Source of the DNA: Escherichia phage HZ2R8
Length of the DNA stretch: 39,482 bases
Sequence record: NC_047923.1
Direction: 5' to 3' (one strand)
Part shown: in pieces, positions 14,849 to 16,619 of the stretch
How positions within the stretch are numbered: the first letter of the stretch is position 1
Layout: every line of letters starts with the position of its first letter
Notes under the pieces: generated by a model
What the model saw: only the letters and a program-made list of their open reading frames with translations
Told to the model about the DNA's origin: nothing
Database searches by the model: none
Translations under genes and position numbers: made by a program

Positions 14849-14871
14849 TAATTGAACTCACTATAGGGAGA
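14849..14871 (+). promoter_or_regulatory. Phage RNAP promoter phi3.8 (TAATTGAACTCACTATAGGGAGA)
   Basis: Consensus-like; followed by the leader hairpin GGGAGACCACAACGGTTTCCC (14866-14886). Confidence 0.8.
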
Positions 14872-14918
14872 CCACAACGGTTTCCCTTTGTTCGCAACGT
14901 TGATTAAGGATTAACCAT

Positions 14919-16619
14919 ATGGAATTAGAACAAGATAGTATATTCCTTTATCATGCTCCCTGCGAGAACTGTGGGTCTTCTGATGGTAACTCAGTGTATT
15001 CTGACGGTCATCAATTTTGCTTTGTATGTGAGCACAGAGTTCCAGCCTCAGAAGAACGCAAACAGGAGCTATCATCAAGAAGACGTATAGTCGGTGGAGG
15101 TAAACCAATGACCTACAACGTGTGGAACTTCGGGGAATCAAACGGACGCTACTCAGCGTTAACTGCCCGTGGCATCTCAAAGGAAACCTGCCAGAAGGCT
15201 GGGTACTGGATTGCTAAGGTAGACGGTGTGATGTACCAAGTGGCTGACTATCGCGACCAGAACGGAAACATTGTGAGCCAGAAGGTCAGAGATAAGGATA
15301 AGAACTTCAAGACAACTGGGAGTCACAAGAGTGATGCCCTGTTCGGGAAGCATTTGTGGAACGGTGGTAAGAAGATTGTCGTAACCGAAGGTGAAATCGA
15401 CATGCTTACCGTGATGGAACTTCAAGACTGTAAGTATCCCGTAGTGTCATTGGGTCACGGTGCCTCTGCTGCTAAGAAGACATGCGCTGCCAACTACGAA
15501 TACTTTGACCAGTTCGAGCAGATTATCCTGATGTTCGATATGGATGACGCTGGACGCAAGGCAGTCGAAGAGGCCGCACAGGTTCTTCCTGCTGGTAAGG
15601 TACGAGTTGCTGTACTCCCATGTAAGGATGCCAACGAGTGCCACCTGAATGGTCACGACCGTGAAATCATGGAGCAAGTCTGGAATGCTGGCCCGTGGAT
15701 TCCTGATGGAGTGGTATCGGCTCTTTCGTTACGAGAACGAATCCGTGAACACTTATCGTCAGAGGAATCAGTAGGTCTACTTTTCAGTGGCTGTAGTGGT
15801 ATCAACGATAAGACACTTGGTGCCCGTGGTGGTGAAGTCATTATGGTCACTTCCGGTTCCGGTATGGGTAAGTCAACGTTCGTCCGTCAACAAGCTCTCC
15901 AATGGGGCACAGCGATGGGCAAGAAGGTAGGCTTAGCGATGCTCGAGGAGTCCGTTGAGGAGACCGCTGAGGACCTTATAGGTCTGCATAACCGTGTCAG
16001 ACTGAGACAATCCGACTCACTAAAGAGAGAGATTATTGAGAACGGTAAGTTCGACCAATGGTTCGATGAACTGTTCGGTAACGACACGTTCCATCTTTAT
16101 GACTCATTTGCTGAGGCTGAGACCGATAGGCTTCTCGCTAAGCTGGCCTATATGCGCTCAGGCTTAGGTTGCGACGTAATTATCCTTGACCACATCTCAA
16201 TCGTAGTGTCCGCTTCTGGTGAATCAGATGAGCGAAAGATGATTGACAACCTGATGACCAAGCTCAAAGGGTTCGCTAAGTCAACTGGGGTGGTGCTGGT
16301 CGTTATTTGTCACCTTAAGAACCCAGACAAAGGTAAAGCACATGAGGAAGGTCGTCCTGTTTCTATTACTGACCTACGTGGTTCTGGCGCACTTCGCCAA
16401 CTATCTGATACTATTATTGCCCTTGAGCGTAACCAGCAAGGTGATATGCCTAACCTTGTCCTCGTTCGTATTCTCAAGTGCCGCTTTACTGGCGATACTG
16501 GTATTGCTGGCTACATGGAGTACAACAAGGAAACAGGCTGGCTCGAACCATCAAGTTACTCAGGGGAAGAAGAGTCACACTCGGAGTCAACGGACTGGTC
16601 GAATGACACTGACTTCTGA
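14919..16619 (+). CDS. 4A: Primase-helicase (gp4A)
   Basis: 566-aa ORF; N-terminal Cys4 zinc-binding motif (CENCGSSDG...CFVCEH), Walker A GSGMGKST; near-identical to T7 gp4. Confidence 0.95.
15108..16619 (+). CDS. 4B: Helicase form gp4B (internal in-frame start at Met64)
   Basis: In-frame ATG at 15108 preceded by GGAGG; a 4B form is established for T7, expression not provable from sequence. Confidence 0.55.
16008..16030 (+). promoter_or_regulatory. Phage RNAP promoter phi4c (inside the gene 4 coding region)
   Basis: CAATCCGACTCACTAAAGAGAGA; position matches the internal phi4c of T7. Confidence 0.7.

Follow-up and report, generated by a model that had tools for sequence, protein, structure and literature searches.

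The region of Escherichia phage HZ2R8 that spans the promoter phi3.8 and gene 4 raises a question about three genes of phage T7. On the T7 RefSeq map (NC_001604), gene 2.8 (9857-10276) lies between genes 2.5 and 3, gene 3.8 (11225-11590) between phi3.8 and gene 4A, and gene 5.3 (16483-16839) between genes 5 and 5.5. HZ2R8 has none of the three, and it may be asked whether HZ2R8 lost them or T7 gained them. We analyzed the whole 39,482-nucleotide (nt) HZ2R8 record NC_047923.1 (the window), and all HZ2R8 coordinates given below are positions on it, position 1 being its first letter.

Our analyses indicated that HZ2R8 probably has the common nuclease-free allele at the 2.5/3, 3.5/4 and 5/5.5 junctions, that T7 genes 2.8, 3.8 and 5.3 are lineage-restricted homing-type insertions and not part of the backbone, and that nothing was deleted in HZ2R8. 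The basis for this conclusion is the remnant-free absence of the three genes, their nuclease families, their distribution in relatives, and a linkage of nuclease presence to flanking alleles that is confined to the downstream side.

The 2.8, 3.8 and 5.3 slots of HZ2R8

A preliminary description of this DNA, made from its letters, had assigned the three T7 genes to these positions and reported the matching gaps in HZ2R8 as empty. The RefSeq map places all three genes in these gaps, and the gap coordinates in HZ2R8 were likewise correct, with spacings of 0, 71 and 19 bp. The stop codon of gene 2.5 (13936) directly adjoins the GTG start codon of gene 3 (13937). Gene 3.5 ends at 14847, and after its stop codon come phi3.8, a 5' hairpin and, 71 bp from the stop, the ATG of gene 4A (14919). 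Between the gene 5 stop codon (19794) and the ATG of gene 5.5 (19814) lie 19 bp.

Three checks had been proposed in the preliminary description: alignment with T7, a TBLASTN search of the gaps for remnants, and a tabulation of nuclease genes per locus. The BLASTN alignment of HZ2R8 to T7 was colinear and had breakpoints at all three slots, with HZ2R8 13940/13961 corresponding to T7 9860/10278 at the 2.8 slot, 14896/14934 to 11210/11586 at the 3.8 slot, and 19795/19797 to 16468/16834 at the 5.3 slot. TBLASTN of all T7 proteins against HZ2R8 (E<=10) produced no match to gp3.8 or gp5.3 anywhere in the genome, and gp2.8 matched only paralogues, namely gene 7.7 and an open reading frame (ORF) between gene 19 and the promoter phiOR. 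No remnant of 2.8, 3.8 or 5.3 was found in the gaps, which are too short for remnants, and the absence of the genes stands.

Distribution of empty and occupied slots among relatives

Backbone genes were placed by TBLASTN, and the gaps between them measured, in loci from three IMG/VR scans (queries gp4, gp19 and gp5) and in T7, 13a (NC_011045) and T3 (NC_003298). In the gp5-centered set, which comprised HZ2R8 and 80 loci with gp5 identities of 65-99%, the 2.5>3 junction was empty (<=23 bp) in 69 of 76 cases and occupied in seven, T7 among them. The 5>5.5 junction was empty (15-24 bp) in 51 of 63 and occupied in 12, and the 7.3>8 junction was empty in 63 of 67 and occupied in four, HZ2R8 being one of these. 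Among 15 genomes with gp5 identity of at least 92%, the 3.5>4 gap measured 67-71 bp in ten and 177 bp in one (a T3-type gene 3.7) and was occupied in four. A 2.5-3 gap of 0 bp was common to HZ2R8, 13 of 14 panel relatives and 13a. The tabulation showed the nuclease genes to be patchy per locus across relatives.

The empty junctions were also alike in sequence: of the 14 other genomes of the junction alignment, nine had the identical 19-bp spacer between genes 5 and 5.5, and the 3.5/4 junction was near-identical in nine other nuclease-free relatives. Phage 13a is without 2.8 and 5.3, as is HZ2R8, and in T3 gene 2.5 adjoins gene 3 while phi3.8 and the RNase III site R3.8 stand directly before gene 4, with no gene 3.8.

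The occupied state was restricted. Gene 2.8 was found among the close relatives in T7 only, and in GenBank phages all sampled gp2.8 matches of at least 95% identity were T7 strains, with about 17 records at 60-95%. Proteins like gp5.3 were present in 100 of 50,697 GenBank phage records, mostly T7 itself. Among the best 25 matches listed for T7-type gp3.8, those at 100% identity belonged only to T7 and the Yersinia pestis phages phiA1122, R, Y, YpP-Y, YpP-R and YpsP-G. As the empty state is common in relatives and is seen in T3 and 13a, empty slots are normal and T7 is the outlier; since the empty state is the majority and extends to the more distant relatives, these data point to T7-type genomes having gained the genes or imported them as cassettes.

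The preliminary description had spoken of canonical T7 slots, a T7-centric wording given how strongly the empty state dominates at 2.5>3 and 5>5.5. Its suggestion of ongoing gain and loss was borne out to the extent that nuclease genes come and go on a colinear backbone, but no loss is evident in HZ2R8. From these sequence comparisons, the framing should be inverted: T7 would have gained these genes and HZ2R8 would have lost nothing.

The opposite history, in which a T7-like ancestor had 2.8, 3.8 and 5.3 and the HZ2R8 lineage deleted all three precisely, is very improbable. It can draw on the genes being non-essential, T7 mutants without three homing endonucleases being viable (bioRxiv 10.1101/2025.09.07.674715), and on deposited T7 records of 35.8-38 kb (vs 39.9 kb), which still contain 2.8, 3.8 or 5.3. 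It would nonetheless call for three independent base-precise deletions that recreated shared junctions, which is implausible when most close relatives have near-identical empty junctions and when T3-like and more distant genomes have empty slots as well. In addition, TBLASTN found zero remnants, and the downstream flanks in HZ2R8 are different alleles from those of T7, not the T7 allele minus a gene.

Nuclease families and the slots they occupy

Pfam placed T7 gp3.8 and gp7.7 in HNH_3, and gp2.8 also though more weakly, all three scoring above the Pfam cut-off, as did two ORFs of HZ2R8 (2887-3330 and 22818-23210). In the alignment of these HNH proteins the motif was intact, with His40, His60 and Asn64 invariant. 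The only Pfam match of T7 gp5.3 was to a PD-(D/E)XK family (PDDEXK_5, PF11645; E = 1e-10, 42.1 bits vs a cut-off of 26.1). The protein belongs to PHROG 5018, of unknown function, and it had no BLASTP match to any HNH protein in the compared set, so that the earlier designation of both 3.8 and 5.3 as HNH-type holds for gp3.8 and fails for gp5.3. The 5.3 slot of T3 is filled by an unrelated HNH gene, whose product shares 48% identity with the HNH protein of the 13a intron. With a PD-(D/E)XK protein in T7 and an HNH protein in T3, the 5>5.5 slot can accommodate different nuclease families.

BLASTP clustering was applied to the inserted ORFs of 15 close genomes, and Pfam was used to check their families. 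Over 16 close genomes, a single HNH_3 cluster filled at least nine slots (1.2>1.3, 1.3>1.6, 2.5>3, 3>3.5, 3.5>4, 4>4.3, a gene 5 intron, 7.3>8 and 19>19.5), with three different versions at 3.5>4, and a 19.4-type HNH gene occupied 19>19.5 in seven of 14 close genomes. This cluster accounted for 18 of 59 gap ORFs, nearly all of the larger ones among them. The inserted nuclease ORFs were all on the transcribed strand (counts include overlapping loci), and the HNH genes were intergenic, had their own ribosome-binding sites and, in the gap tables and junction alignments, varied in presence at one locus among close relatives. The nuclease set of HZ2R8 recurred in no other close genome of the slot tally.

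Two apparent slot occupants were rejected. The 620-bp "5>5.5 insert" of locus L011 ends with gene 5 terminal sequence and represents an intron-borne HNH gene, and the "insert" of locus L026 at 1.2>1.3 is a divergent gene 1.2 (Pfam T7-like_gp12). In 13a (L191), gene 5 is split at codon 653/654 by a group I intron that carries an HNH ORF (14575-15175), and gene 5 of L011 has the same arrangement at ~14775-15170. Gene 5 of HZ2R8 (17680-19794), which shares 99% identity with that of T7, runs without interruption and thus has an intron-less site.

Linkage of nuclease genes to downstream flanks

The upstream limit of each nuclease site was the stop codon of the preceding gene, and linked divergence was found downstream only. 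Comparison of HZ2R8 with T7 showed identity falling only downstream of each empty slot. Gene 3 had 65-75% nucleotide identity between genes 2.5 (90-100%) and 3.5 (87-95%); in a gapped alignment, the first 180 nt of gene 4 had 42-70% and the remainder 87-98%; and gene 5.5 had 42-80%, the end of gene 5 having 88-98% and gene 5.7 having 88-100%. With the phiOR leader, these are the divergent downstream flanks of the two phages.

The same pattern was seen when genomes with and without a given nuclease gene were compared column by column. T7-type 3.8 was separated by 49 columns in gene 4 nt 4-177 and by zero in gene 3.5 or gene 4 nt 178-600. Gene 7.7 was separated by 41 columns in gene 8 nt 3-308 and by zero in gene 7.3, and 19.4 by 134 columns that begin at phiOR and reach into the first part of gene 19.5 and by zero in the final 400 nt of gene 19. 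Across the linked block of gene 8, carriers and non-carriers of 7.7 were 82% identical, compared with 92-93% further along, and the differences in the block were mostly silent (94% amino-acid identity). Genes 3.8, 7.7 and 19.4 were thus perfectly linked to their downstream flanks, a linkage that co-conversion would produce. These alignments show the sites to be cassette swaps, not simple insertions or deletions.

This downstream-flank linkage fits homing with co-conversion. In a mixed infection, each endonuclease would cut the allele without its gene, near its own insertion site and most likely in the leader or opening part of the gene downstream. Phage recombination would repair the break from the nuclease-carrying genome, and the repair would bring in the nuclease gene along with some of the flank downstream of it, which is the direction of conversion that we infer. 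The copied flank would have a variant, presumably uncleavable, sequence, and repeated events of this kind could leave each phage with its own nuclease set while the backbone stays colinear.

Several points weigh against the reading of 2.8, 3.8 and 5.3 as homing-type insertions. Gene 5.3 was tracked by two columns only, 8-11 nt before the gene 5 stop codon, and the divergent gene 5.5 allele does not follow 5.3 presence. The linkage of 2.8 relies on T7 as the one close genome with this gene, and the IMG/VR panels overlap, so that per-slot ORF counts include duplicate loci. In the literature collection searched, no paper was found that demonstrates homing by T7 gp2.8, gp3.8 or gp5.3, and we infer cleavage and homing by all of these proteins from their sequences. 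Finally, ordinary boundaries of recombination could also yield downstream-only linkage, the nuclease gene then being a passenger.

In its fuller form, the last point holds that the nucleases have no part in driving their spread and ride along in cassettes that are shuffled, by general homologous or illegitimate recombination, when T7-like phages infect the same cell. Many of the variable cassettes are indeed non-nuclease (gene 1.4, gene 0.5, an ORF like gp0.45 of 13a, and ORFs of 76-91 amino acids at 5>5.5), and genes 5.5 and 1.2 have divergent alleles independent of nuclease presence. We nevertheless consider this explanation unlikely, because nucleases are strongly over-represented among the inserts and because their genes lie exactly at block boundaries with one-sided linkage, an arrangement also reported for phage nuclease genes at boundaries of exchange (PMC10448857).

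Nuclease genes carried by HZ2R8

HZ2R8 has three homing-type nuclease ORFs, compared with four in T7. The preliminary description had noticed a nuclease in the gap between gene 19 and phiOR, and this is confirmed by the ORF at 2887-3330, which sits between the gene 19 stop codon (2849) and phiOR. Its product matched Pfam HNH_3 (E = 9e-9) and HTH_23 as well as the HNH proteins of PHROG 6254 (E = 3e-60), had 69% identity to the annotated HNH protein gp19.4 of 13a, encoded in the equivalent slot, and had copies 92-99% identical in five IMG/VR relatives.

A second nuclease had been placed in a 0.5-0.6 gap. The ORF is there (5789-6232), and its product matched Pfam Endonuclease_7 (E = 4e-24, 84.7 bits) and the endonuclease VII proteins of PHROG 2633 (E = 8e-40), but the site is the 0.4-0.6 gap (5408-6233 in HZ2R8), because gene 0.5 itself is absent. 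Among close relatives, the ORF at this slot was common only to L011, with related ORFs in other slots elsewhere. On its domain and gene setting, it is a candidate free-standing homing endonuclease gene.

The same gap has a small ORF related to gp0.45 of 13a (Table 1). A 68-nt direct repeat (81% identity; 5383-5450 and 5702-5769) has one copy directly upstream of each of the two 0.4-0.6 cassettes. The repeat matches T7 1409-1476. Its two copies form similar interrupted hairpins when folded, and at the equivalent intergenic position T3 has an annotated RNase III site, R0.5. These observations suggest that each cassette has a processing site of its own, either brought along or duplicated.

The third nuclease ORF, the gene 7.7 HNH, had been omitted from the preliminary description. 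At 7.3>8 it is HZ2R8 that has the minority, occupied state.

An alternative view of these genes is that they are kept for phage benefit, for instance by blunting break-sensing defenses or excluding competitors, and that the repertoire reflects host defense pressure. A catalytically inactive T7 gp3.8 attenuates the GAPS4 defense, and wild-type T7 beats a triple homing-endonuclease deletion only with GAPS4 active (both bioRxiv 10.1101/2025.09.07.674715); most relatives, however, manage without 2.8, 3.8 and 5.3. As the account of the present pattern this is possible but doubtful, and such a benefit is compatible with the homing model, not exclusive of it.

Table 1. Positions of the HZ2R8 features considered in this study
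Feature	Coordinates	Strand	Evidence or remark
Gene 2.5, single-stranded DNA-binding protein; 2.8 slot empty	13238..13936	+	98% amino-acid identity to T7 gp2.5
Gene 3, endonuclease I; GTG start	13937..14392	+	allele seen in all genomes without 2.8
phi3.8, class II T7-type promoter TAATTGAACTCACTATAGGGAGA; +1 G at 14866	14849..14871	+	sequence; promoter pattern scan
5' leader hairpin GGGAGACCACAACGGUUUCCC	14866..14888	+	9-bp stem at 5' end in RNA fold
37 bp replacing T7 11211-11585 (gene 3.8)	14897..14933	+	BLASTN breakpoints
Gene 4A, primase/helicase, 566 amino acids	14919..16619	+	95% amino-acid identity, T7 gp4A residues 6-566
Gene 5-5.5 spacer TTCTATAGGAGAAATTATT, 19 bp; 5.3 slot empty	19795..19813	+	BLASTN breakpoints; junction alignment
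Free-standing HNH gene, 147 amino acids, HNH_3 and C-terminal HTH, between gene 19 and phiOR	2887..3330	+	Pfam; PHROG
Promoter phiOR, downstream of HNH gene	3382..3404	+	promoter pattern scan
Small ORF, 66 amino acids, 0.4-0.6 gap	5477..5677	+	70% identity to 13a gp0.45; PHROG 6500, unknown function
Endonuclease VII-family ORF, 147 amino acids, 0.4-0.6 gap	5789..6232	+	Pfam Endonuclease_7; PHROG 2633
Gene 7.7 HNH, 130 amino acids, between 7.3 and 8	22818..23210	+	70% identity to T7 gp7.7; Pfam HNH_3 E = 7e-16

The phi3.8 promoter, its leader and the start of gene 4

In HZ2R8 phi3.8 serves gene 4 directly. The promoter pattern scan of the genome gave 12 matches, compared with 0.08 expected, and the HZ2R8 phi3.8 aligned to T7 phi3.8 at 11180. 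At 14854-14871 it reads ...CTCACTATAGGGAGA, which is nearer the consensus than the ...CTCACTAAAGGGAGA of T7 and most relatives; among the 14 other genomes of the junction alignment, the T of the HZ2R8 promoter was also present in L026 and L011.

RNA folding of 14865-14935 gave -19.7 kcal/mol (z = -3.1). The position of the leader hairpin matches that of the annotated RNase III site R3.8 of T3, directly after T3 phi3.8, and the hairpin was kept in all close relatives in the junction alignment. The short segment that stands in place of T7 gene 3.8 includes a Shine-Dalgarno sequence (AAGGA) and the beginning of gene 4, five codons long (MELEQ), and the first ~180 nt of gene 4A are the allele linked to the absence of gene 3.8.

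Relation of the HZ2R8 genome to T7

TBLASTN of 56 T7 proteins and BLASTN against T7 showed HZ2R8 to be a complete T7-like genome with the same gene order as T7 and ~88-90% nucleotide identity genome-wide. Most T7 proteins matched in order (gp1 97.5%, gp5 99.3%, gp19 98.5%), and with T7 gene order and close homologues of the core proteins (RNA polymerase, gp4, gp5, gp8, gp10 and gp19) HZ2R8 belongs in Teseptimavirus. No record in the GenBank phage collection was identical to it; the best matches, at 92-94%, were natural Teseptimavirus-type isolates (CICC 80001, vB_YenP_WW2, ESh6, HZP2, N30 and EG1).

The record is circularly permuted, opening at gene 17.5, with T7 position 1 aligning at ~3885. 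Across the junction (3473-4563), BLASTN aligned the T7 right end (39366-39918) at 3473-4023 and the T7 left end (1-750) at 3885-4563. As these ends overlap at 3885-4023, the terminal repeat is represented once in the record, at ~3885-4023.

That the empty slots reflect an assembly or annotation error or an engineered, genome-reduced T7 has a negligible probability. The permuted start and the single terminal repeat might hint at it but are an assembly convention. The divergence from T7 extends genome-wide, the nearest GenBank matches are natural isolates, and the HZ2R8 junctions recur in many independent genomes. An engineered or reduced T7 was rejected on that divergence and the shared natural junctions.

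Other differences from T7 were noted along the genome. T7 genes 1.4 and 0.5 were also absent from HZ2R8 in the TBLASTN search of T7 proteins (E<=10). T7 gene 1.4 (T7 7594-7760, DUF5464) is missing at 11921, between gene 1.3/TE and phi1.5, as in many relatives; without it the 1.3>1.6 gap is 182 bp, and in other relatives this gap has gene 1.4 or an HNH gene. Genes 1.2 (10522-10779) and 5.5 (19814-20110) are divergent alleles (58% and 53% amino-acid identity to T7, respectively) in neighborhoods otherwise 90-100% identical, and gene 5.7, which adjoins gene 5.5, is 100% identical. Gene 1.7 (12325-12864) encodes a protein of 179 amino acids that aligns with T7 gp1.7 (196 amino acids) only from residue 20, and the shorter 540-nt form is also annotated in 13a. 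The tail fiber encoded by gene 17 (37599-39434) has 611 amino acids, vs 553 in T7, with 50% identity over T7 residues 1-479. Nucleotide similarity to T7 stops at 38159, indicating that the distal, receptor-binding part of the HZ2R8 fiber is different.

Comparison with known systems and implications

HZ2R8 shares with T7 the backbone, gene order, phi3.8, R3.8 and the gene 7.7 HNH (70% amino-acid identity). T7 has 2.8, 3.8, 5.3, 1.4 and 0.5, whereas HZ2R8 has the 19.4-like HNH gene, the endonuclease VII ORF and the gp0.45-like ORF. Phage 13a resembles HZ2R8 in its HNH 19.4 before phiOR (69%), its 7.7 HNH and its gp0.45 (70%), and differs in having a 160-amino-acid gp3.8 and the HNH-bearing group I intron in gene 5 and in being without the endonuclease VII ORF. 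T3, of the genus Teetrevirus, differs from HZ2R8 in the HNH gene of its 5.3 slot and in having neither 7.7 nor 19.4.

The seg and mob genes of T4 are free-standing homing endonuclease genes for which homing has been demonstrated experimentally. Free-standing nuclease genes of T4-like phages and ICP1 are like those of HZ2R8 in being small, intergenic and patchy among close relatives, at the edges of recombination blocks and with flanks that travel together with them, and phage nuclease genes have been described as tending to occupy boundaries of genetic exchange (PMC10448857). They differ from the HZ2R8 genes in phage family and nuclease subfamilies, and the homing of the T4 genes is experimental, that of the HZ2R8 genes putative. 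The ORF at 5789-6232 may be likened to F-CphI of cyanophage S-PM2, an endonuclease VII-motif homing endonuclease (PMC6083498), in having an endonuclease VII domain and being a free-standing intergenic gene, a likeness of domain and gene setting. In the Citrobacter phages SH1-SH5, homing endonuclease presence or absence was a main difference from phiYeO3-12 and Dev2, and homologues of gp5.3 and gp3.8 were named (PMC4925675). Nuclease polymorphism among T7-like phages is thus already well described, and HZ2R8 is one more ordinary instance of it.

As the 2.8, 3.8, 7.7 and 19.4 cassettes are all linked downstream only, they may share one cutting rule. We put forward tentatively, as something that may well not hold, that each nuclease would cut no more than ~200-300 nt into the gene or leader downstream of it and that a resistant allele of this segment would travel along with its gene. 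If this were true, HZ2R8 would have sensitive alleles at the three T7 sites, and T7 at the 19.4 and endonuclease VII sites of HZ2R8, and marker exclusion in a T7 x HZ2R8 cross should be reciprocal and site-specific. Evasion of DNA-break-sensing defenses such as GAPS4 might also be tuned by the nuclease repertoire.

These findings matter mainly for annotation and interpretation and will not surprise phage genomicists. With 2.8, 3.8 and 5.3 being minority insertions, T7 is unsuited as a canonical gene map, and the promoter called phi3.8 is one from which gene 4 is normally transcribed directly. The alleles described here for junctions and flanks are candidate target regions for the uncharacterized T7 proteins gp2.8, gp3.8 and gp5.3. 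HZ2R8, without all three genes, would be a natural partner phage for homing or marker-exclusion crosses, and the recent proposal that these T7 genes attenuate a bacterial defense makes such crosses timely.

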